From positions 1 to 20,970 of the forward strand of contig JBFMGU010000187.1 of assembly GCA_040752415.1 (NCBI GenBank): a stretch of DNA of 20,970 bases, written 5' to 3'. Shown here in pieces: positions 1,482 through 17,784 of the stretch. The notes under the pieces are model-generated. The model saw only the letters and a list, made by a program, of their open reading frames with translations, had not been told where the DNA came from and searched no databases. Source of the DNA: Myxococcota bacterium. GTDB lineage: Bacteria; Myxococcota; JACRCW01. Positions within the stretch are counted from its first letter, which is position 1. The number at the start of each line of letters is the position of its first letter. The translations under genes and the position numbers were made by a program.

Positions 1482-4400
1482 TTACCAGGCAAACCCGTCC
1501 GCCTGGTCGTAACCGTACTCGGCCAGCAGGCCGCGCATGATTTCGATGATGCGGACGTCCTGGCGCAGGGCGCTCTCCTGGCCCGGCTTGATGGTGACGC
1601 CGTCAGCCTGGAAGTACTTGTCCTTGATCTTCCGGATGTACTCGTAGCCGATGCTGTAGAACGGCCGCTCCGCGAGGAACCAGCTGTCCGAGGGCTGCAT
1701 CTTCACCGCGTAGTAGATGTAGCCGGTGGTCGGGTCCGTGAACTCCACGTACCGGCCCGCGTCGCGGATGGCCTGCGGCACGGAGATATCCACCGTGCTG
1801 CCCGCCTTGCCGATGAACATGGACTGGTTGAAGTCCTGATCCTCGGTGATCTGCGTGTAGTAGACCGAGCCGATGAACATGGCCTGCAGACGCGCCATGT
1901 ACTGGTCGTCCGGGTTCAACGTGATGGTGCCCGCCGGCTGCTCACGCGGCGGCTGACCCTGCAGCGCGCCGGAGAACGTCGGCACCAGCTCGCGGTAGCG
2001 CAGGTTGGCCTGGCCATCCGCCACTTCCACGTACGGCGCGTACTGGTTGTAGTCCTCGTTGATGAAGCCACCCACGGCGCTCTGGATCTGGTTGAAGAAC
2101 AGGCTGTTGAAGCTGATGAGGTAGCTGCGGCTGTCACCGGTGGCGTCCACGCCAATGAACTCGGTGTACGGATCACCCAGCGCCTGCATCGCCAGCCACT
2201 TGTCCCACCAGGAGCCAATCGCCACCGGCTTCCAGTAGAAGTAGTAGCCGTACTGCTCCCTGTCGTACTTATCCAGGCCGTAGCGACCAATCCCCAGCGG
2301 CACATCCACCGGCTTCTCCCAGATGTCGTCGCCACCGGCGGTGAGCTGGGGCAGCCAGCTGTCGCAGCTCTCGCTGTCTTCGATGTGCGTGTACGGGTCG
2401 GTGGCCAGCACCGTGGTGAGCGTGCCGCCCGGGTTGGCCGGCGGGTTGGCGCACACGGAGTCATCCAGCTTCTGGATGGTGGCCGGCAGACCGTTCACGT
2501 CCTCGTTGCTGTCCAGGTAGCAGCCAGGCTTGCGACGGATGTAGCAACCGGGCTCCGGCGTCTGCAGCACGCGACCCAGCGCATTGGCCGACTCCAGCGC
2601 TCCCGCAAAGCGGTCCAGACCACAACGCGCATCCACGAAGTGCACGCCGCCCGCGCTGGGATCATCGCAGCCCGCGTCCCAGAACCGGTTGATCAGGTTG
2701 TCGTTGAGGAAGTGCTTGTTCTGCGCGGACAGGAACTCGAAGTAACGCCCGTAGATGCGGCTGATGTAGTTGTACAGGCTCATGCCGAAGCCAACGCGGT
2801 TCCGGCGGAGACCGTTGAAGATGTAGTAGTTCTCGTACATGGCCGCGTTGTTGCGGACCTGCTCGTACGCATCCGCGCCCTGGTCAAAGCGGTAGCAGAA
2901 GAACGAGCTGTTCACGTACTCGTCGGAGCAGAAGCGGTACGGCACTTCCACCAGCGTGCTGCTGGCCATCACATCCGCCTCACGCACCGTCTTGCGCGTG
3001 TAGATGGCGTTGACCTTGGCGTCGTAGGTGTAGCTCGGGTCGCCGGCAATGATGTCCGGGTAGGTCGTGTAGTGGCGGACAATCGGCGCCAGCAGCGGCG
3101 CATCCCGACGCTGGATCTGCGGCGCGTCGTTGCCAGCGTTGCTGTCAAACACCTCCACCATCAGGCCGTAGCCGTACTTGATGGCGGCGCGGTCGTAGAG
3201 GCCCAGGCCGTGGATGTCGCTGTTGGGCTTGGAGCCGTAATCCATGATGGTGCTGTACTGGAACTCACGCAGGCCCTTGTTGAGCGCGTCCTTCAGGCCC
3301 TCACGCTCCTGCGCGTTCAGCATGAATTCCGGCTTCAGCTTGCCGTTGGCGCCCACCGTGTTGCCACGCAGCTCCCAGTACTGGGGGAAGTAGTTGATGG
3401 CGTCCGTGGTGCCCGCGAAGTTGTGTCGCAGACCCACGTTGTGGCCCACCTCGTGGAGCTCCACGCCCACGAAGATCTCCTCCAGCAGCCAGTTGTAGGC
3501 CTTCTCCTCGTCCAGTGTTCCCTCGGGCGTGCAGAACAGGCCGAAGTCGCGCGCGTCGTCGCCGCTCTCGTTGGGCCGCAGGTTCTTGCAGTCCATGCGG
3601 TGCGCCAGGCCCTGCATGCCGTCGTCAAAGAACTCCATCATGTCGATGGTGGCGCGGCCCAGGCGGTACTCACGGTCCTTGTGCAGGTTCATGAACACCG
3701 GGTCGTGCATGGTGGCGGGAGACAGGAACCGCTGCCAGCTCGGCGGGGTGTCGGAGGCGTTCTCGAACTGCGGCGCCATGGCCCGACGCATCGGCTCGGG
3801 GAAGAACACGCCCTCCATGGTGGTGCCACGGATGCGCTCCAGGCGGCCGGGAATCTCGTCGGTCATCAGCTCACCGCGGGCCAGACGCTCACGCAGCACC
3901 GCGGCCTTCTGCGGAATGCCCAGGTTCTCCGCCAGCTGGCGGAACTGCTCCGGCTGCATGGACATCTCGCTGGACTCACGCATGGCGCGGGCGCGCTGGT
4001 AGTGCTGGCTGATCTGGCCGCCGTTGACGAAGTCGGAGGCATCCAGCTCGCCGTTCTGCACCTTGATCATGTCCAACGCGTACTGCACGTAGGTCTCCAG
4101 CGCGGCGCCGTAGAAGAACGCGTTGGCGCTGATGACCTCACCGGTGGTGATGTCCACGGCGTGCGGGCCGTAACCCAGCGGGCTGGCCTCCTGCGGACCG
4201 TTGACGATGTAGATCATGTTGTAGCGGAGGTCGCCGGCCTGGGGGTTGGTGCCCGGCGCGCCGCACTCGGGACGGTCGCCCTCACGCACCGGGTTGTTCA
4301 GACACACCACGAAGACGTCCGGCAGGCTGTCCTTGCTGCGGCCGGTCATGGCGCTGACCGCGTCCTTGAACACGTCGTTCCACTCCGCGCCAATGCGCGC

Positions 4401-5429
4401 GGCGCCGTTCTTCAGACGGTCCGGGAAGTCCTCGTTGATGTAGTAGACAATGGGGCGGATCTGCTCGTTGGCGCAGTTGGCGTAGGGGTGCTCCAGGCTG
4501 TCGTCGCGGCAGGTCTCACCCGGCTTGTGCTTCCACAGGTTGAACCGCTCAATCAGGTAGTCCACCGACGTGTCCACGATGTCGTAGTGACGGTCGTAGC
4601 CGTAGCGGTCCACGCGGAAGTAGCCGAACTTGGCGAACTTGTTGTCGTCGTAGGTGAGCGCGTCGTAGCCGCGGTCCGGGTCCGCCTTGAGGAAGCTGCT
4701 GCGCACCTTCAGGCGGGAGCCCATGCAGTCCGCGTAGATGGTGCTGTACAGCCAGCACGACGGGATGGGCATGCCGTAGTAGTCGCTCAGCCACGCGTTG
4801 ATTTCCGGCGCGGCAATGATCTCGTGCACCACGTCCACGTAGTCCGGCGTGATCTTGGCGGCGTCCTTGCTGTTCTCCGCCTCACGCACGTACCGGCCGC
4901 CGGGCTGCTGCATCACGTAGCTGCCGGAGAACCGGAAGTCCGTGATCAGGTTCTGCGTCCAGTCCACGCGCATGTACTCGCGCTCGTTCCAGGGACGGTC
5001 GACCGTGTTCTCGCTGATGACGTTGGTCTGCTCCCCCGTTCGGGGGTTGTACTCGCGCTGGATGTCGAAGTGGCTCTCGATGGGGAACGCGGCAATGGGC
5101 GTGCCCTCATACGGAACGCCGGGGCGCGCCGCGTACTCCTCACCGCCCTTCAGGTGCTCATGCGCGCGGAAGGCGTAGAGGAAGTCACGGTCGATCTTCC
5201 ACACCACCTTGGTGGTCTCGCCCTGCTCACCAATGAAGGAGATGGCGCTGGTGGCCGGGATGTCGATGATCGTCTGGCGGAAATACCAGGGCTTCCCGTC
5301 GGTGAAATAGCTCTTGGCAACCTTGTCCGGTTGGGTCCGGTCAATGTCCCCAACGTTCATGCCGCAGCCAACGGCAGCTGCAAGCCCCGCCATCATGGCC
5401 AGCGCCTGGGCGCGCATCCTGAAGACCAT
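1482..5429 (-). CDS. Large lipoprotein zinc-dependent metalloprotease (metzincin, EcxA/DUF4953-like catalytic domain), ~1315 aa
   Basis: HEVGHNVGLRH zinc motif (3423-3455) and STIMDY Met-turn. The N-terminus MVFRMRAQALAMMAGLAAAVG-C ends in a lipobox. A GAGGAGAGG SD before ATG 5429 supports this start over 5600. Confidence 0.9.
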   Translation of the reverse strand: MVFRMRAQALAMMAGLAAAVGCGMNVGDIDRTQPDKVAKSYFTDGKPWYFRQTIIDIPATSAISFIGEQGETTKVVWKIDRDFLYAFRAHEHLKGGEEYAARPGVPYEGTPIAAFPIESHFDIQREYNPRTGEQTNVISENTVDRPWNEREYMRVDWTQNLITDFRFSGSYVMQQPGGRYVREAENSKDAAKITPDYVDVVHEIIAAPEINAWLSDYYGMPIPSCWLYSTIYADCMGSRLKVRSSFLKADPDRGYDALTYDDNKFAKFGYFRVDRYGYDRHYDIVDTSVDYLIERFNLWKHKPGETCRDDSLEHPYANCANEQIRPIVYYINEDFPDRLKNGAARIGAEWNDVFKDAVSAMTGRSKDSLPDVFVVCLNNPVREGDRPECGAPGTNPQAGDLRYNMIYIVNGPQEASPLGYGPHAVDITTGEVISANAFFYGAALETYVQYALDMIKVQNGELDASDFVNGGQISQHYQRARAMRESSEMSMQPEQFRQLAENLGIPQKAAVLRERLARGELMTDEIPGRLERIRGTTMEGVFFPEPMRRAMAPQFENASDTPPSWQRFLSPATMHDPVFMNLHKDREYRLGRATIDMMEFFDDGMQGLAHRMDCKNLRPNESGDDARDFGLFCTPEGTLDEEKAYNWLLEEIFVGVELHEVGHNVGLRHNFAGTTDAINYFPQYWELRGNTVGANGKLKPEFMLNAQEREGLKDALNKGLREFQYSTIMDYGSKPNSDIHGLGLYDRAAIKYGYGLMVEVFDSNAGNDAPQIQRRDAPLLAPIVRHYTTYPDIIAGDPSYTYDAKVNAIYTRKTVREADVMASSTLVEVPYRFCSDEYVNSSFFCYRFDQGADAYEQVRNNAAMYENYYIFNGLRRNRVGFGMSLYNYISRIYGRYFEFLSAQNKHFLNDNLINRFWDAGCDDPSAGGVHFVDARCGLDRFAGALESANALGRVLQTPEPGCYIRRKPGCYLDSNEDVNGLPATIQKLDDSVCANPPANPGGTLTTVLATDPYTHIEDSESCDSWLPQLTAGGDDIWEKPVDVPLGIGRYGLDKYDREQYGYYFYWKPVAIGSWWDKWLAMQALGDPYTEFIGVDATGDSRSYLISFNSLFFNQIQSAVGGFINEDYNQYAPYVEVADGQANLRYRELVPTFSGALQGQPPREQPAGTITLNPDDQYMARLQAMFIGSVYYTQITEDQDFNQSMFIGKAGSTVDISVPQAIRDAGRYVEFTDPTTGYIYYAVKMQPSDSWFLAERPFYSIGYEYIRKIKDKYFQADGVTIKPGQESALRQDVRIIEIMRGLLAEYGYDQADGFAW

Positions 5430-5660
5430 CGTCAACCTCTCCTCGCTGCCGGAAGGCCGCGGAAAAAAAAGTGCGGCATCCTTGTTCGCGGGCTCCACGG
5501 TGTAAAGCCCGGCAGGCATGCCGAAATCACCGGCCCGACGCAAATCAAGAAGCATGCCCGCGCCAGCGTTGCCGGCCGGTGGGGCAAGGTAGGCCTTCAC
5601 AAGGGAAATCTGGCGGTTTTCCAGGAGTGGTGCGGCCTACGTGAGCGCTGCCACGGGCCC

Positions 5661-7136: not shown

Positions 7137-7248
7137 GGCGGGAATTGCGCGAGAGGAGACTCTGCGTGATAGCGTCCGCCACCGCAAAAGGCCATGGACA
7201 TGGTGTCCTGACCGCCACACGCCCCGCCAATGGGGGTAGAGGTTGCCG

Positions 7249-7458
7249 ATGAACAAGAAGCTCGTTGCTGCGTTTGTGGGTGGTTTTGCGTTCTCCTCCG
7301 TTGCTGCCATGGCCGCCCCGAGCGTGACCGTGGCCGAGAAGAAGGACGACAAGAAGAAGAAGGACGAGAAGAAGGGTGGCGAGAAGTCATGTGGCGGTGA
7401 GAAGGGCGGCGAGAAGAGCTGTGGCGGCGAGAAGAGCTGCGGCGGCGAGAAGAAGTGA
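7249..7458 (+). CDS. MNIO-modified RiPP precursor (oxazolin/HvfA- or bufferin-like), 69 aa, with Sec signal and 3x EKSCGG
   Basis: MNKKLVAAFVGGFAFSSVAAMA|APSV signal peptide, a K/D-rich spacer, then GGEKSCGGEKGGEKSCGGEKSCGGEKK. It has an AGAGG SD and lies immediately upstream of DUF692 and DUF2063 genes. Confidence 0.88.
   Translation: MNKKLVAAFVGGFAFSSVAAMAAPSVTVAEKKDDKKKKDEKKGGEKSCGGEKGGEKSCGGEKSCGGEKK
7375..7455 (+). repeat. Intragenic tandem repeat encoding GGEKSC units
   Basis: 18-nt unit GGCGGCGAGAAGAGCTGY repeated directly, plus a synonymous variant GGTGGCGAGAAGTCATGT and partial GGEK units. Confidence 0.8.
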
Positions 7459-7486
7459 GCGCTTGATTCTTCTCTGAATCACCCAC

Positions 7487-7530
7487 AGGCGCCCCTTTCC
7501 ACGTCGGGAAGGGGCGCCTTCGGTTTTCTG
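7487..7530 (+). terminator. Intra-operon hairpin / leaky intrinsic terminator after the precursor
   Basis: AGGCGCCCCTTTCC-ACGTC-GGGAAGGGGCGCCT forms a 14-bp stem with one G:U pair, followed by TCGGTTTTCT. Confidence 0.75.
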
Positions 7531-7571
7531 GGGTTGCCCACCACGTCACTCCGCTCGAGGGAAACACCAAC

Positions 7572-8393
7572 ATGCCGCGCAAGGTTGCCGGCCACGGCAT
7601 TGGCCTCCGCCGCCCCTACTACGACGAGGTCCTGCACACGTCCCGCCGCGTGGACTGGATGGAGATCACGCCGGAGAACTGGCTGAGACGAGGTGGCGAA
7701 CGCGCCCGCCAGCTGGCCGCCGCCGCGGAGCGCTTTGCACTGGTGCCGCACAGCGTCTCGCTCTCCATTGGCGGGCCGGACCCGCTGGAGGACTCGTTCC
7801 TCGACGAGATCAACGCGCTCTGCAAGCTCACCGACCCGCCGTTCTGGTCGGACCACCTCTGCTACTCCTCGGCGCACGGCATCCACTTCCATGACCTGCT
7901 GCCCCTGCCCTTCACGCGTGAGGCGGTGCGTCACACCGTGCAGCGCATTGAGCAGGTGAAGCGCAGGGTGGACCGCCCGTTCCTGCTGGAGAACGCCACC
8001 TTCTACGCGTTCATGCCGGGCGCGGAGATGGATGAGGCCACGTTCATGACGGAGATCCTGGAGCAAGCGGACTGCGGCATGCTCCTCGACGTCAACAACG
8101 TCTACGTGAACTCGGTGAACCACGGCTTTGACGCGCTCAGGTTCATTGACGCGTTGCCGCTCAAGCGCGTGGCCTACGTGCACATGGCGGGGCACACGAA
8201 GAAGCAGGACGTCATCATCGACACGCACATTGGTCCCATCATCGAGCCGGTGTGGCAGCTCTACGCGGAGGTGATGAAGCGGCTGGGGCCGGTGCCGGTG
8301 ATGGTGGAATGGGATGACGAGATTCCCGGCCTGGACGCGGTGCTGGATGAGGCCGACCGCGCCCGGGAGATCACCACCAGGGTGTGCGCATGA
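7572..8393 (+). CDS. DUF692-family multinuclear non-heme iron-dependent oxidative enzyme (MNIO; HvfB/BufB/MbnB family)
   Basis: Family motifs GIGLR, EITPENW, HSVSLSIG, WSDHL, HDLLPLP, LLEN, LLDVNNVYVN, HMAGH, IDTH and VEWD. GAGGGA SD. Confidence 0.95.
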   Translation: MPRKVAGHGIGLRRPYYDEVLHTSRRVDWMEITPENWLRRGGERARQLAAAAERFALVPHSVSLSIGGPDPLEDSFLDEINALCKLTDPPFWSDHLCYSSAHGIHFHDLLPLPFTREAVRHTVQRIEQVKRRVDRPFLLENATFYAFMPGAEMDEATFMTEILEQADCGMLLDVNNVYVNSVNHGFDALRFIDALPLKRVAYVHMAGHTKKQDVIIDTHIGPIIEPVWQLYAEVMKRLGPVPVMVEWDDEIPGLDAVLDEADRAREITTRVCA

Positions 8394-9103
8394 AGCTCCG
8401 TGAGTTCTACGACGTCATGGGCCCGTATCTGGCCGGCCAGCGGACGCTGGAGGAGACCGCGCGGGCCCTGGGTGACGACATCAACGTGGCGCGCCTGGGC
8501 ATCTACGGACGTTTCTGCCAGCTCCACCGTGAGGGCATCCTGGACACGCTCTTCCCGCTCACCCGCGCCGCCGCGGGGAACGCGTTGTGGGAGGAGCTGG
8601 GGCGCGCCTTCTTCCAGGCACATCCCACGCGCGACTGGGAGCTGAACGCCAACGCGGAGCGCTTCCCGGAATTCCTCGCGTCACGACGAGAACGCGACCC
8701 GCGCATCACCGCGTGGCTCCCGGACCTGGCGGACCTGGAGTGGTGGGAGTGGGCCAGCTACGTCGCGCAGGAGGCGGACCCGGAGCCCGCGCGCAAGCAC
8801 CAGGTGAATCCCACGCTGGCGCTGCGACAGTACGCGCACGACGTGGTGACCTACGCGGATGACGACGAGCGCACCGGCGCTCCGGCGGCCCAGCCCACGT
8901 TCGCCGCGTTCTGGCGTGATGCGCGACTGCAACCGTGTCGCCGGCGTCTGGGCGGTGCGGAGCTGGGTGTCATCAAGGCGGTGATGGAGGACGTGGCGCT
9001 GAAGCACGCGGCCGCGGCCATGGGCGTGGAGGAGAAGCTGTTGCGCAGCGCGCGGGAGGGGCTGTGTCGCGCGGGTATCATCCTCCGCCCGACGAGGAAA
9101 TGA
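8390..9103 (+). CDS. DUF2063-family MNIO partner (HvfC/BufC-like, RiPP-recognition)
   Basis: ATGA overlap with the DUF692 stop. Pattern RLGIY...LDTLFP...W..L.R.FF..HP...W.LN...FPEFL...WL.DLA.LEW. Confidence 0.85.
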   Translation: MKLREFYDVMGPYLAGQRTLEETARALGDDINVARLGIYGRFCQLHREGILDTLFPLTRAAAGNALWEELGRAFFQAHPTRDWELNANAERFPEFLASRRERDPRITAWLPDLADLEWWEWASYVAQEADPEPARKHQVNPTLALRQYAHDVVTYADDDERTGAPAAQPTFAAFWRDARLQPCRRRLGGAELGVIKAVMEDVALKHAAAAMGVEEKLLRSAREGLCRAGIILRPTRK

Positions 9104-10929: not shown

Positions 10930-12762
10930 CTATTCGCCGTCGGCGTCGTCGCCGCCCACCAGCTGCTGGAGCCCCTGCTGGGCCAGCCGGCGGACCTCGG
11001 CGTTGCTGTCCTTGGACGCGTGGAACAGCGCGCGCCGGAACCCCCGCTCCGAGAGCGCCACCATGGCCCAGACCGCCAGTGCCCGCACGTCCTCATCCTC
11101 GGAGCGGCTGTCCTCGATGAGTCGACGCGCCACGCGCTCCCGGCCACGACGGTCGGGCGCGTTGCGGAAACGCTCGACGAGATCCTCGTAGAACGCCTTG
11201 AGGTGGTCGGTGGCGCTCATGCCCTTGCCGTCGGTGACGGCCACGTGCTGCTCGGTGAAGGGCTTGCGGGAGCGCTCGTCACCGAGATCCCGGGACAGGG
11301 ACGCGGCGCGCGGCAACGGCTGCTCCGGGCTGGTGACGTTGACCTCGTGCTCGGAGAGGACCGCGGTCTCCAGCGCCCCCTCGAACGGCTGGGTCATCAC
11401 CGGATCCTCGAACACCTCCGACGACGGCCGCGGTGGCGGGCTGGGCCGAGTGACCGCGGGCGCGGGGTACGGCTTGGTGGCGCGCGCGTTCTCTGACGGA
11501 GCGGCTGGTGGAGGTGGCGGCGGTGGTGGCGGAGGCGGTGGCTCCGGCGGCGGGGCGATCTGCGCCTGCACCGGTCGTGGTGGCGGCGGACGGCTGGCGC
11601 GCGCGGGTGGCGGACGGCTCTGGCCCGGACCGGCGGGTGCACGGGAGAGGTTCAGCCCGTCGAGGGCGGAGACGTCCAGGTGCGGGATCTCGTCGTGGAT
11701 CTTGGCGGCCAGCGTGCTGCCCTCACGCTTGGCGTCCTTCAGCAATTCCTCGACGGAGCGCGGCAGGCTGGTGCTGGCGGAGAGCACGTGCAGCGTCACG
11801 TCCGCGCCCTTGGTGACGTAGAGGCCGGGGTACACCGCGCCACCGCGCGTGCGCTCCTTGAGCAGACGCTCCATCTCGTCAAACGCGCTGGCGCGGGTGT
11901 CCTTGAGCACGCTCTCCGGCGCCACCAGCACCACCGCCAGCAGGCTCACCTTCTCCACCGGCATGCCCGTGGAGAACACGTCGCCGCCGTCCACCGCGTG
12001 CAGGACCTGGTTCACCAGCTCGTCGGCGGTGAGGCTGACGTCGGTGAGCGTGTGTTGGCTGGGCACCACCACGCCGCCGCTGAGGAGCACCTTGCGGAAA
12101 TCCTCGCCGTCAAAGCTGCGCACGCTGCGCAGGTCGGTGCGGCTGTTGAGGCGGTTCAGCTCGTCGATGGCGTTGACGATGTGCGCGTTGGCGTGACGGT
12201 AGTAGCTGAGCACGTCCAGCGAGGGATACAGCTCCGCCACGCGCTGGTTGTCCACCAGCATGCGCGCGTGGATGGGCACGTCGACGAGCGACTCCGCGGC
12301 CTTCACCGCGTTGACCTTCACCAGCCCGCTCTCGGAGTTGGAGGGCAGCGTGCACAGCGCCGCGCGCGGGATGCCCGTGCCTTCCAGCACGCGCGCCAGC
12401 TCGCTCACCGCGCTGCCGGTGCCGCCGCCCAGCCCCGCGCACAGGATGACCAGGTCATGCCCGGCAAAGCGTGAGCCCACCTCCTGCACCAGCATCTCGG
12501 CGTGCTCGGCCACGCAGGCGCGACCGTAGTCGGGATCCTTGCCGGCGCCGTCGGTGCCATCCAGGCCCACGTAGACGCGCGCGTCCTCCGGCAGGCCGAA
12601 CTCACTGCCACCCAGGGAGCGCAGGTCGGTGCTGGCCGTGTTGACCGCCATGGCGCGGTAGCCACGTCGGGAGAACTCCACGGCCAGGTTGCCACCGGCT
12701 TGACCGAGGCCCACCACGCCCATGCGCAGGGAGAATTTGTCGGATCTGGCCGGGGCGGGCAC
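10930..12762 (-). CDS. Divergent tubulin/FtsZ-superfamily GTPase with poly-proline linker and C-terminal HEAT-like repeat domain (610 aa)
   Basis: T1 VVGLGQAGGNLA (12688-12711), T2 AVNTASTDL, T3 GAGKDPDYG, T4 AGLGGGTGS (12412-12429), T5 TLPSNSE, T6 LVDNQR and T7 SFDGEDF (12097-12117). Then 12 consecutive Pro and HEAT-like EDEDVRALAVWAM / DSNAEVRRLAQQGL. GAGGA SD before GTG 12762. Confidence 0.9.
   Translation of the reverse strand: MPAPARSDKFSLRMGVVGLGQAGGNLAVEFSRRGYRAMAVNTASTDLRSLGGSEFGLPEDARVYVGLDGTDGAGKDPDYGRACVAEHAEMLVQEVGSRFAGHDLVILCAGLGGGTGSAVSELARVLEGTGIPRAALCTLPSNSESGLVKVNAVKAAESLVDVPIHARMLVDNQRVAELYPSLDVLSYYRHANAHIVNAIDELNRLNSRTDLRSVRSFDGEDFRKVLLSGGVVVPSQHTLTDVSLTADELVNQVLHAVDGGDVFSTGMPVEKVSLLAVVLVAPESVLKDTRASAFDEMERLLKERTRGGAVYPGLYVTKGADVTLHVLSASTSLPRSVEELLKDAKREGSTLAAKIHDEIPHLDVSALDGLNLSRAPAGPGQSRPPPARASRPPPPRPVQAQIAPPPEPPPPPPPPPPPPAAPSENARATKPYPAPAVTRPSPPPRPSSEVFEDPVMTQPFEGALETAVLSEHEVNVTSPEQPLPRAASLSRDLGDERSRKPFTEQHVAVTDGKGMSATDHLKAFYEDLVERFRNAPDRRGRERVARRLIEDSRSEDEDVRALAVWAMVALSERGFRRALFHASKDSNAEVRRLAQQGLQQLVGGDDADGE
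11506..11541 (-). repeat. Poly-proline tract (12 consecutive CCN codons)
   Basis: TGGTGGAGGTGGCGGCGGTGGTGGCGGAGGCGGTGG on the plus strand, with mixed synonymous codons. Confidence 0.9.
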
Positions 12763-12864: not shown

Positions 12865-13149
12865 TCAGCCGCCCACGCCCGCGCCGTGCCGCCGCGCCGG
12901 TGCGCCAAACGCCGCCTGCAGCAGCGCCGTCCCCCGCAGCTCCACGTCGGACTCCACCGGGATCTGCGACTGCTGCCGCCCACCCAACGCCTCCGCCAGG
13001 AGCGCCTGCCGCTGCTCCGCCGTCAGCCCGGGCAGGGACGCCACGTGGCGCTGCACGTCCGCCACCATGAGCTCCCGCAGCAGATCCGGAGAGTGTGCGC
13101 CACCGCCCGGCACCGCGCGCATGGCATCCAGCACGTTGGTCTTGGACAT
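12865..13149 (-). CDS. Small hypothetical protein (~94 aa) upstream of the tubulin-like gene
   Basis: Co-oriented ORF filling the gap between panC and the GTPase. GGGAG/AGGA upstream of ATG 13149 and a helical-looking sequence (PDLLRELMVADVQRHVASLPGLTAEQRQALLAEAL). No family recognised. Confidence 0.5.
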   Translation of the reverse strand: MSKTNVLDAMRAVPGGGAHSPDLLRELMVADVQRHVASLPGLTAEQRQALLAEALGGRQQSQIPVESDVELRGTALLQAAFGAPARRHGAGVGG

Positions 13150-13260
13150 TTCCTGCCACTCCCAGAGGGCCACCGGCTCGTCGCCATACCCATGTAAGAG
13201 GGAGGCGCACCTTGCCTGACACCATGTGGGATGTCTACGGAATTCGACCGACGCGACGCG

Positions 13261-15738: not shown

Positions 15739-17019
15739 TCAGGCCTCGCGGTAGGTAACCTGCACTCCGCCCAGGGAGACCACGTCGCCGTCCCTGAGTG
15801 AGTGCACCGGGGTGGGCTTGCCGGCAACCTGCGGGAAGCGACGGTCGCCCACCGCGGTCACCATCCAGCCCGTGGGCGTGGCGGCGAACAGCAGGTAGCC
15901 GGTGGGGGCGTAGTTGAGCCCGTCGGGGGGGCCGCCTTCCGAGCCGTCCTCCGCCACGTACGCCCAGTCCTTCTTGAGCTTCACGGTGCGGGTGGCCCCG
16001 TCGCTGTGCGAGACCTCCAGCGAGGCCTCCGGCAGCTTCACCGCCGGGCTCTTGGTGCCGGTGGTCTGCAGACCGGTGGGCGGACGCAGCGGCGGAGGCG
16101 CCTTGGTTGGGATGGGCGCCTTGGGCGCCGGGCCCTTCCCCGGCGGCAGCGGCGGGGGCTGGGAGACACCCACGGTCTCGCCGGCCTCGTCGCCCTCCTG
16201 CCAGTCCACGCTGCCCGGGCCTTCCAGCTCCTCCTTGGCGGCGGCGCCCTTCTCCGCGCCCTGCGGGCCAAACGCCAGGCGGTTCTCGTGGGTGACCTGC
16301 ACCTCGAAGTCACCGCCCATGTCCGCGGCCGCCGCCAGCTTGCTCTTGTCCAGCAGCATGGTGCGGTTGCCGGGCTTGTGGGCGTGGGGAGCGTCGGCCT
16401 CCGCGCTCGCCGACTCACTCTGCTCCAGGTAGCTGACGCGGATGGTGTACTCGCTGACGCGGATCTCGTCGTCGGGGCCCACCGGCGTCAGCCCGCGGAT
16501 CTTCTCCCCGTTGACGCGCGTGCCGTTCTGGCTGCCCAGATCCTCGGCAAAGAACTTGCCATCCTTCAGGACCACGCGCAGATGACGGCGGGAGATGGAC
16601 TTGCGACCGATGGAGATGTCGCAGTCCGGGCTGCGACCGATGACGATCTCCTCTCCCACCATGGCGAAGCGGTGGCTGCCTTCCGGGCCGGTCAGGGTCA
16701 GCACCGGCGTGGAGGTCTTGGCCTCTTCCACGCCCTCCAGGCGGAGCTGGAACTTGCCGCCCAGGCTGATGATGTCGCCGCCCTGGATGGGACGGGCGCC
16801 TTCCAGGCGTTCCCCGTTGATGAACGTGCCGTTCTGGCTCCCCAGGTCCCGGATCCAGATGGACGCACCGCGCACCTCCAGCTGCGCATGGCGACGGGAC
16901 AGCGCCCGGTTTTCCAGCCTGAGATCATTGGCCTCATCCCGGCCAATGGACATGCTGGGTCCCCTCAATTCGGTGCGGAGAACCTGCTCACCCTTCTCTT
17001 CAACGACGACGAACGCCAC
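15739..17019 (-). CDS. Multi-FHA domain protein (two canonical FHA, Pro-rich linker, degenerate C-terminal FHA-like domain), ~426 aa
   Basis: IGR...LSRRHA...DLGSQNGTFING and IGR...ISRRHL...DLGSQNGTRVNG, with a C-terminal LRDGDVVSLGG. AGGAGA SD before GTG 17019. The longer 17781 start overlaps a plus-strand gene. Confidence 0.9.
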   Translation of the reverse strand: MAFVVVEEKGEQVLRTELRGPSMSIGRDEANDLRLENRALSRRHAQLEVRGASIWIRDLGSQNGTFINGERLEGARPIQGGDIISLGGKFQLRLEGVEEAKTSTPVLTLTGPEGSHRFAMVGEEIVIGRSPDCDISIGRKSISRRHLRVVLKDGKFFAEDLGSQNGTRVNGEKIRGLTPVGPDDEIRVSEYTIRVSYLEQSESASAEADAPHAHKPGNRTMLLDKSKLAAAADMGGDFEVQVTHENRLAFGPQGAEKGAAAKEELEGPGSVDWQEGDEAGETVGVSQPPPLPPGKGPAPKAPIPTKAPPPLRPPTGLQTTGTKSPAVKLPEASLEVSHSDGATRTVKLKKDWAYVAEDGSEGGPPDGLNYAPTGYLLFAATPTGWMVTAVGDRRFPQVAGKPTPVHSLRDGDVVSLGGVQVTYREA

Positions 17020-17163
17020 CGCTGCGCTCTCCTGTGACCGTTCTCGGCGTGGGCCGGAGGCCAAACCTAACCGCGATTCCCTACCAAAGTCCAAAGCACG
17101 GACACCGTCATCTTTCCGGTGCCCGCCCCAGGCGGGAAAACCGCTAGAGTTGCGCGCGCACCC

Positions 17164-17784
17164 ATGAAGCTGCTTTCCGCGCTCCTCGTCGTGGTCCTGG
17201 CTCCGCTCCTGGCGGCCCAGGAACCGGAGGCTCCCCCCGCGGAGGCCCCGGCGCGTACAGTCCAGCTTCACATCGGCATGTTCGAGGGCGACACGCCCAG
17301 CGCACGCAACCTGGCGCCGGAGGTGGCACGTCACGCCGCGCGGCTGGCGCGCACCCGTCCCACGCTCAAGGTCACGGAGGACGCCACCGGCAGCCAGGCG
17401 GACCCGGAGCTGCTGCGCCACGAGGGCGCGCTGCTGGTGTGCATGAACCCCTGGTCCAGCAAGCGCGAGGTGCTGGCGTGCATCAAGGGGCTCACCTTCC
17501 CGCCCGCGTTGGAGGCTCCGCCGACGGGCACGCAGTTCCTGCTGCGCGGCAACGTCCGTCCCGGCGACGGCGGAACCTACATCACGGCCACGCTGGCGCC
17601 CATGGTCGACGGGGAACCCGGCCCGCTGCTGTCCAGTCGGACAGTGCTGATTCCCACGCGCGCCGGCCGCAACAAGCGCGACAAGCTGCTGGCGGAAGTG
17701 TTCAACCCGCTGCTGGACGCGGTGGAGGGCAAGCCCATTGCGCCCGCGCCGCCGCCACCCAAGAGGTCCAAATGGGGGCACTGA
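17164..17784 (+). CDS. Hypothetical secreted protein (~206 aa), paralog A
   Basis: Signal peptide MKLLSALLVVVLAPLLAAQE and GC3 bias. Shares a CxNPxxxKxxVLxC motif with the next gene. Confidence 0.75.
   Translation: MKLLSALLVVVLAPLLAAQEPEAPPAEAPARTVQLHIGMFEGDTPSARNLAPEVARHAARLARTRPTLKVTEDATGSQADPELLRHEGALLVCMNPWSSKREVLACIKGLTFPPALEAPPTGTQFLLRGNVRPGDGGTYITATLAPMVDGEPGPLLSSRTVLIPTRAGRNKRDKLLAEVFNPLLDAVEGKPIAPAPPPPKRSKWGH

Follow-up and report, generated by a model that had tools for sequence, protein, structure and literature searches.

A probable chromosomal clade of TubZ/RepX-like GTPases with a HEAT-like end domain in Myxococcota

The window analysed here is a stretch of 20,970 nucleotides (contig JBFMGU010000187.1, positions 1 to 20,970 of the forward strand, assembly GCA_040752415.1) from a Myxococcota bacterium, and the gene in question lies on its minus strand at 10930-12762. 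The gene encodes a protein of 610 amino acids with a GTPase core of the tubulin/FtsZ type, a long proline-rich linker and an end domain that we read as HEAT-like with two repeats. It very probably represents a distinct chromosomal clade within the TubZ/RepX-like radiation, outside both FtsZ and CetZ. This classification rests on sequence, profile, Pfam, Foldseek, VIA and tree results together. The best explanation overall is that of a chromosomal TubZ/RepX-like GTPase that would form a filament and carry a tethered HEAT docking domain, a reading that we consider probable though well short of certain. The parts of the gene are given below, with the predicted local distance difference test (pLDDT) of an AlphaFold2 model built from a 22-sequence alignment (the window protein and 21 relatives, all full-length).

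10930-12762, minus strand: whole open reading frame (ORF), 610 amino acids; GTG start, TGA stop at 10930-10932
12148-12723, minus strand: N-terminal GTP-binding (Rossmann-like) domain with loops T1-T6, residues 14-205; PF00091; pLDDT >90
12691-12711, minus strand: T1 loop GLGQAGG, residues 18-24; G18, L19, G20, Q21, G23 and G24 invariant in the 22 sequences
12412-12435, minus strand: T4 signature GLGGGTGS, residues 110-117; coordinate-checked
11758-12147, minus strand: C-terminal (activation) domain of the core, residues 206-335; PF22453
12094-12117, minus strand: T7 loop SFDGEDFR, residues 216-223; F217, D218, E220, D221 and R223 invariant in the 22 sequences
11683-11757, minus strand: long helix after the core, residues 336-360 (helix 335-358 in the AlphaFold2 model)
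11221-11661, minus strand: disordered proline-rich linker of 147 amino acids, residues 368-514; pLDDT <50, 27% proline, a run of 12 prolines
10957-11214, minus strand: HEAT-like end domain of 86 amino acids, residues 517-602; five helices, pLDDT ~97

Placement in the TubZ/RepX-like radiation

A single-sequence phmmer search against solved structures showed the Bacillus RepX/TubZ structure 4ei7 as the best match (E 7.5e-18, residues 9-344), followed by FtsZ structures at approximately 1e-12 that covered the GTPase domain only. The family profile matched RepX at 108.5 bits over the whole core, CetZ2 at 79.5 bits and FtsZ at 66.3 bits or less, again over the GTPase domain only. The top Foldseek matches were 4ei7 and TubZ of B. 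thuringiensis (2xka). Structural comparison with VIA gave Z scores of 28-36 between the core fold and all branches of the tubulin/FtsZ superfamily; the highest was with TubZ-Bc 4ei7 (Z 36.1, root mean square deviation 2.9, 343 residues aligned), followed by TubZ-Bt 2xka (35.6) and CetZ2 (34.7), and the best FtsZ and tubulin scores were 31.1 and 28.6, respectively.

The maximum-likelihood tree (61 rows, 367 columns) supported FtsZ and CetZ as separate clades at 100/100 each. A TubZ/RepX-like group of 44 rows was supported at 100/98 and included RepX-type plasmid proteins, Brevibacillus and C. perfringens plasmid proteins, Bacillus phage G gp138, metagenomic groups and the tail-bearing family of the window protein. 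This family, consisting of 14 tail-bearing rows and P0179, was supported at 100/99. A new cytoskeletal family had been suggested by the first-pass annotation of this DNA; the clade is distinct, but the family is not wholly new and lies inside the TubZ/RepX-like radiation. The GQ-type T1 loop that it had pointed out is indeed shared with CetZ in the form GQAGG, but neither the tree nor Pfam CetZ_C places the protein there. CetZ identity was rejected on account of the lack of a CetZ_C match at E ≤ 1 and of exclusion from the 100/100 CetZ clade. Tubulin_2 was likewise not among the Pfam matches of the protein at E ≤ 1.

Separation from the cell-division FtsZ

The genome to which the window belongs (11.0 Mb, 520 contigs) has two genes with a Tubulin domain, namely the TubZ-like gene and a 165.6-bit match on contig C268. 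The gene on C268 has an FtsZ_C domain (119.8 bits) and sits in a murC-murB-ddl-ftsQ-ftsA-ftsZ cluster, that is, the division and cell wall (dcw) cluster. For the window protein, FtsZ_C was not among the Pfam matches at E ≤ 1 and the NCBIfam equivalog TIGR00065 scored 71.8 bits against a cut-off of 295.2. The protein ends in LVGGDDADGE, with no FtsZ-type C-terminal peptide found there, and no ftsA, ftsQ or mur genes were found by Pfam among the genes neighbouring it, both as the first-pass annotation had described. All five other ortholog-carrying genomes examined had one FtsZ_C match each. In two of the phylum's genomes, G082 and G032, the TubZ-like gene and ftsZ are on one multi-megabase contig, and the TubZ-like gene is therefore chromosomal there.

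FtsZ identity was ruled out by the TIGR00065 score, the missing FtsZ_C match, the place outside the FtsZ clade and the separate dcw-linked ftsZ. The separate ftsZ on C268 speaks against the possibility that the protein nests in FtsZ as the only copy in its genome. Overall, these comparisons support the earlier proposal that the gene encodes a putative second, non-division paralog of the tubulin superfamily.

Reading frame, GTP-binding loops and predicted fold

The plus-strand frame of 10930-12762 is interrupted by stops. A GAGGA sequence lies approximately 10 nucleotides 5' of the GTG start, and this start is favoured because the conserved DKFSLR, which precedes the first strand, sits upstream of the internal ATG (M14). 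The G+C content at third codon positions (GC3) is 0.93 for the core and 0.90 for the tail, which resembles the adjacent genes; the genome has a G+C content of 68%. The observation is far beyond chance, with core matches at E ≤ 1e-30 in 90 representative proteins. Scans for promoters and terminators around the gene found nothing.

The core matched Pfam Tubulin PF00091 at 47.4 bits (cut-off 33, residues 16-178) and TubZ-like_C PF22453 at 34.5 bits (cut-off 26, residues 210-335). Its GTP loops had been recognised from the sequence, with T1 as GQAGG and T4 as GGGTGSA; T1, T4 and T7 were located by coordinates and found to be invariant or near-invariant in the 22 sequences. MAFFT alignment set SFDGEDF of T7 opposite NVDFADV of FtsZ, HFDASEF of RepX and VVDSSEI of CetZ. 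Thus both acidic positions (D218 and D221, which we take to be the counterparts of D209 and D212 of E. coli FtsZ) are retained and the asparagine of FtsZ is replaced by serine, in agreement with the first description of this loop. The AlphaFold2 model had pLDDT mostly >90 over core residues 8-360. VIA alignments with TubZ (to residues 354-358) and CetZ (349-361) covered the helix after the core, and FtsZ chains ended at 330-343. With its PF00091 match, its T1, T4 and T7 motifs and its two-domain fold, the protein is a member of the tubulin/FtsZ superfamily.

Linker and HEAT-like end domain

The layout of core, proline-rich disordered linker and two-unit HEAT-like domain, as first read from the sequence, was reproduced in the AlphaFold2 model and is conserved in the family. 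In the model the end domain consists of a cap helix and two helix-turn-helix repeats of approximately 31 amino acids each, of the alphaRep/PBS-lyase type. When the single sequence was scanned, Pfam HEAT (21.5 bits, cut-off 23.5) and HEAT_2 (21.1 bits, cut-off 27.7) over residues 553-603 were just under their thresholds, and the family profile matched designed alphaRep HEAT-like repeat proteins at 102.5 bits (E 2.4e-28). Some relatives carry a precomputed PF13646 label. The proposed analogy with TOG domains and cofactor D found no support; the cap helix and two repeats are far below the size of a TOG domain.

Hidden Markov models (HMMs) of the core and the tail were built locally and run on 257 collected relatives. 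The tail HMM scored 122 bits on the window protein and matched 148 of the 257 relatives, 142 of these at 50 bits or more. Among the 120 listed relatives from a word-index search, 115 had a strong tail, one a weak tail and four none; these four had 404-572 amino acids and one was labelled partial. Remote relatives with core scores below approximately 270 bits have no tail. In the 138 members that are full-length, 0-13 residues (median 1) follow the tail, and the linker measures 46-572 amino acids (median 148) with 16% proline. Mean pairwise identity in the 22-sequence alignment was highest in the GTPase domain (56%), 44% in the C-domain and 44.5% in the tail, and lowest in the linker (21%). Judged from these values, the tail is under constraint comparable to that on the C-domain of the core. 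A search with the tail alone brought up 19 proteins of comparable length, each of which carries PF00091, and the only match among short proteins was one 64-residue fragment. As far as searched, this tail subtype occurs solely fused to a tubulin-like core. It has been lost or remodelled in some lineages. Complex prediction of the core (residues 9-375) with the tail (515-610), run without controls, gave a score of 0.00, which neither supports nor opposes binding between them.

Relatives and distribution

The word-index search produced 202 proteins at E ≤ 0.001, the best with 55% identity. The named relatives came from metagenome-assembled genomes (MAGs) of Myxococcota, 'Deltaproteobacteria' or Myxococcales and were labelled hypothetical, 'cell division GTPase FtsZ', 'CetZ' or 'HEAT repeat domain-containing'; cluster entries carried just MAG or hypothetical labels. 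An exhaustive search of 1.84 billion representatives showed 90 matches at E ≤ 1e-30, 452 at ≤ 1e-10 and 3408 at ≤ 1e-3. The cluster of the window protein in the ESM Atlas has 51 members, with Myxococcota as the commonest phylum. Among the genome-contig matches listed there were at least seven true orthologs in MAGs labelled Polyangiaceae, Myxococcales or Deltaproteobacteria, and one tail-less copy in a 'Fibrobacteres' MAG.

The phylum was sampled evenly with 401 genomes, of which 26, the genome of the window included, had an ortholog (E ≤ 1e-30); among high-quality genomes it was 15 of 316. Each positive genome had one gene; the copy in G150 matched as two adjacent pieces in separate frames. 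The positives cluster in a few coded families (f6, 14/20; f18, 5/11; f2, 2/2; f1 and f20, 1/1 each), and no ortholog was found in families f11 (0/172), f15 (0/67), f10 (0/21), f4 (0/18) and f30 (0/17).

Plasmid records gave 231 matches, all under 60% identity; relatives there were only approximately 25% identical and mostly Bacillus RepX. Among phage records Bacillus phage G alone matched, and IMG/VR viral contigs held 18 relatives with 25-33% identity, none of which had the tail. None of these plasmid, phage and viral-contig searches gave a relative above 33% identity. An integrated plasmid or prophage remnant was rejected on the basis of the GC3 similar to that of the neighbours, the housekeeping setting, the synteny with the same-family genome G001 and the single gene per genome. 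The gene is a host-resident chromosomal gene and not a mobile element.

Genomic setting

According to Pfam, the adjacent genes are a PpiD/SurA-like gene, a small orphan ORF, panC and tyrS, which agrees with the housekeeping setting noted initially. The gene order of an FHA protein, tyrS and panC, then the TubZ-like gene, the ppiD-like gene and a Met-zincin-like gene is common only to G001. The other features of the window are as follows.

1482-5600, minus strand: protein of 1372 amino acids with the zinc-protease motif HEVGHNVGLRH and a short Met-zincin (DUF4953) match
7243-7458, plus strand: ORF of 71 amino acids with a signal-peptide-like start and three EKSCGGEK repeats
7572-8393, plus strand: MbnB/TglH/ChrH-family gene (345 bits), with the 71-residue ORF directly upstream
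8384-9103, plus strand: DUF2063 gene after the MbnB/TglH/ChrH-family gene
12865-13173, minus strand: orphan ORF of 102 amino acids immediately upstream of, and on the same strand as, the TubZ-like gene; GC3 0.90, coding-like
15739-17781, minus strand: protein with two FHA domains (133 bits) and proline-rich stretches

No Pfam family matched the 102-residue ORF, and neither the other 13 loci compared nor five related genomes yielded a counterpart. A role as a TubR analogue was rejected on these grounds, the missing Pfam match and its absence from the five relatives, and the ORF is a lineage-specific orphan. Upstream of the TubZ-like gene no centromere-like repeat array was found, only a single two-copy repeat of 17 nucleotides. 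For type III (TubZRC) systems, the comparison showed neither a conserved TubR-like neighbour nor a repeat array nor a close plasmid or viral copy.

In a genome of the same class (G002, contig C87, locus L096, 5425-10338), the ortholog follows rpsP-, KH-, rimM- and trmD-like genes and precedes an rplS-like gene. At loci L015, L099 and L100 a divergent greB-like gene adjoins the ortholog. The neighbours at the G002 and greB-like loci were named from their translations without a family scan. Loci L017-L019 have several neighbouring genes in common. No dcw genes were found near the TubZ-like gene in any of the 14 loci.

The Met-zincin-like protein of 1372 amino acids is 62% identical to its counterpart at the syntenic position in G001. 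The FHA part of the protein at 15739-17781 is 82% identical to its syntenic counterpart in the same genome, and the given start of this ORF is probably too far upstream. From its sequence, the stretch at 7243-9103 looks like a locus for a cysteine-repeat ribosomally synthesised and post-translationally modified peptide, with the 71-residue ORF as precursor and the MbnB/TglH/ChrH and DUF2063 genes as the modifying enzyme pair. It may resemble clusters of the bufferin/oxazolin type.

Proposed mechanism and alternatives

In the proposed mechanism, the core would bind GTP through loops T1-T6 and polymerise head-to-tail, so that T7 (D218, D221) of one subunit would complete the GTPase site of the next and dynamic filaments would result. 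The disordered linker (46-572 amino acids) would act as a flexible tether, and the conserved HEAT-like end domain would dock the filament to a protein partner, either cargo or anchor. This would work alongside the division protein FtsZ and not in its place. Assembly-coupled GTP hydrolysis in head-to-tail protofilaments is the most likely activity because the GTP loops are invariant, T7 is intact and the predicted fold is TubZ-like. The tail is as constrained as the C-domain of the core and confined to this family, and for this reason it is read as a putative docking domain for one specific partner. In FtsZ, a linker and C-terminal peptide link filaments to FtsA/ZipA, and in TubZ the C-terminal tail links filaments to TubR-DNA. 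By analogy with these two layouts, the linker and end domain of the present protein may serve docking. What the analysis shows is the identity of the domains, the conservation of the catalytic loops, the fold, the clade, a single chromosomal copy that coexists with FtsZ, and constraint on the tail. That the protein polymerises and turns over GTP, that the linker serves as a tether and that a partner exists is what we infer, with filament formation suggested by the loops and the modelled fold. A GTP-driven filament with a tethered docking domain is given about even, or slightly better, chances.

Several observations weigh against this reading and against the placement of the gene. The VIA Z scores of TubZ and CetZ differ by approximately 1.5 and structure alone does not separate them. 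The tree held no rows for TubZ-Bt, PhuZ, BtubA/B, eukaryotic tubulins, artubulins or FtsZl1/2, and 25 of the initial 86 rows, mostly redundant and one a long branch, were removed before it was made. All named database members are MAG proteins, and no neighbour gene was conserved across the 14 loci, so that no partner is indicated. The orthologs or near relatives L099 (in G032), L020 and L021 (452-478 amino acids) have no tail and L017-L019 carry a strongly diverged one (24-27 bits); the tail is therefore not indispensable everywhere. In addition, P0165, P0176 and P0212 keep the tail but have a degenerate T1 (GLGRGGG) and a T7 of GIQANRL in which the acidic residues are lost. Some members thus need not be active GTPases, and these three may be catalytically dead paralogs or orthologs.

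Plasmid maintenance is the function of TubZ and RepX, which are the closest relatives to have been characterised (Makarova & Koonin 2010, PMC2875224, in the sections available), and this would fit DNA segregation as in type III systems. Here the filament would move the chromosome or a large replicon, with the HEAT tail bound to a DNA-binding adaptor encoded elsewhere. An ORF of 290-360 nucleotides stands directly upstream of the tubulin gene in six of six plasmid and phage loci, and the window too has a small ORF (102 amino acids, GC3 0.90) at this position. However, that ORF is the orphan described above, which lacks a Pfam match and counterparts in the other 13 loci and five related genomes; no neighbour is conserved across the 14 loci, no iterated centromere-like repeat lies upstream, and a folded domain stands where TubZ has a basic flexible TubR-binding tail. 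We regard segregation as unlikely. Self-regulation of a TOG-like kind would have the HEAT domain bind its own core, in cis or on neighbouring subunits, and cap, bundle or autoinhibit the polymer. The confinement of the tail to this tubulin family (19 of 19 tail matches with PF00091), the change of core and tail subtypes in step across the two main subclades and the binding of tubulin by eukaryotic HEAT-repeat proteins are in its favour. Nevertheless it is judged improbable, as the tail has two repeats against six in a TOG domain, a linker varying from 46 to 572 amino acids suits a tether that reaches out better than a fixed intramolecular clamp, and the core is intact in lineages without the tail.

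An accessory paralog for division or cell shape, co-assembling with or modulating FtsZ or the divisome, would fit the coexistence with one FtsZ in its own genome and the five others examined, as well as the FtsZ-like layout of core, disordered linker and conserved end element. But the protein falls outside the FtsZ clade, lacks FtsZ_C and scores far under the TIGR00065 cut-off; none of the 14 loci places its gene close to dcw genes, and no copy was found in most of the phylum's normally dividing families (e.g. 0/172 and 0/67 genomes). Such a role appears about as improbable as self-regulation. A non-polymerising GTPase switch or scaffold, a monomeric or dimeric regulator that kept the tubulin fold and used the HEAT part as a protein-binding module, would account for the subclade that keeps the tail despite an altered T1 and a T7 without acidic residues; the architecture can therefore persist without a canonical polymerisation-coupled GTPase. 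Against this, T7 and all GTP loops are invariant in the window protein and its 21 aligned relatives, a hallmark of the assembly-activated GTPases of the tubulin/FtsZ superfamily, and this last alternative is very improbable.

A filament with a docking domain remains the preferred reading. In its more specific form, some non-Myxococcaceae Myxococcota (Polyangiaceae are among the named MAG records of these lineages) would have a cytomotive filament of the TubZ type that is encoded by the host and passed on vertically. A HEAT dock on a long entropic tether would have replaced the TubR-binding tail, and the filament would position a cargo of the cell, for instance a region of the chromosome, a complex at the pole or a large assembly of enzymes. 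This form is offered tentatively. The tubulin-superfamily systems known in bacteria are FtsZ, the TubZ/PhuZ motors of plasmids and phages and, more rarely, BtubA/B. If true, the cytomotive filament would add to FtsZ and BtubA/B a 'third tubulin system' encoded on the bacterial chromosome, and this system would either descend from the mobile-element TubZ/PhuZ motors or be ancestral to them.

A literature search turned up neither a paper describing a HEAT-tailed TubZ-like protein from myxobacteria or from a chromosome nor a characterised protein of this architecture, consistent with what the first-pass annotation had stated. In the available sections of Santana-Molina et al. 2023 (PMC9871819), TubZ is plasmidic in Firmicutes and Myxococcota are not mentioned. 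In the available part of its supplement the Myxococcota entries are canonical FtsZ and GLGQAGG occurs 0 times, though gapped alignments could hide the motif. The available sections of Makarova & Koonin 2010 (PMC2875224) also describe no such family. A conserved TubZ-like clade on the chromosome that lacks TubR and has a folded adaptor domain where a short tail would be expected would link tubulin-like filaments to cellular targets in a new way. It would also bear on the origin of mobile-element tubulins, which may have been domesticated by hosts or have arisen from host paralogs. All the named members are from uncultured genomes. Myxobacteria have large genomes and a complex cell biology, which makes an extra cytoskeletal system plausible and testable, and both the core and the tail, which are small and can fold on their own, are easily expressed.

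Comparison with known systems

TubZ/RepX of type III plasmid and prophage partition in Bacillus and Clostridium (4ei7, 2xka, 3m89, 4xcq) is the best match of the whole core by sequence, profile and fold. It also has in common with the window protein the C-terminal domain (TubZ-like_C above cut-off), the long helix that follows, the D-x-x-D/E of T7 and the 100/98 tree group. However, the identity is only approximately 25%, and the window gene is chromosomal and single-copy amid housekeeping genes without a conserved TubR-like gene or tubC-like repeats. Instead of the short flexible tail of TubZ, the window protein has a long proline-rich linker and a folded HEAT-like domain, and the family occurs in Myxococcota and not in Bacillota or phages. 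Among phage tubulins (PhuZ and phage TubZ-like proteins, Bacillus phage G gp138), viral TubZ-like clusters are the nearest structural clusters in the ESM Atlas (TM by row 0.72-0.81), and BFVD matches included a Caudovirales FtsZ-like protein (E 4e-27) and PhuZ (4e-11). They differ in that 0 of 18 viral loci have the tail and their core-HMM scores reach at most 184 bits, against at least 270 in the tail-bearing family.

The tail resembles the alphaRep/PBS-lyase HEAT-like repeats (HEAT_2) in its helix-turn-helix repeats and in the profile match of 102.5 bits, but it has just two repeats and a cap helix and its own HEAT_2 score is under the cut-off. FtsZ has the same fold and GTP loops, together with a core, a variable disordered linker and a conserved C-terminal binding element; the window protein differs in its T1 (GQAGG against GGGGG), in lacking the C-terminal peptide and in not being encoded in the dcw cluster. 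From the archaeal cell-shape protein CetZ (4b45, 4b46, 3zid) the window protein differs in being bacterial, in its HEAT tail, in the lack of a CetZ_C match and in its place outside the CetZ clade. The likeness to CetZ lies in the GxGQAGG of T1, the long helix after the core, a near-tied fold (Z 34.7 vs 36.1) and the second-best profile match (79.5 bits), and CetZ is also a chromosomal non-division paralog.

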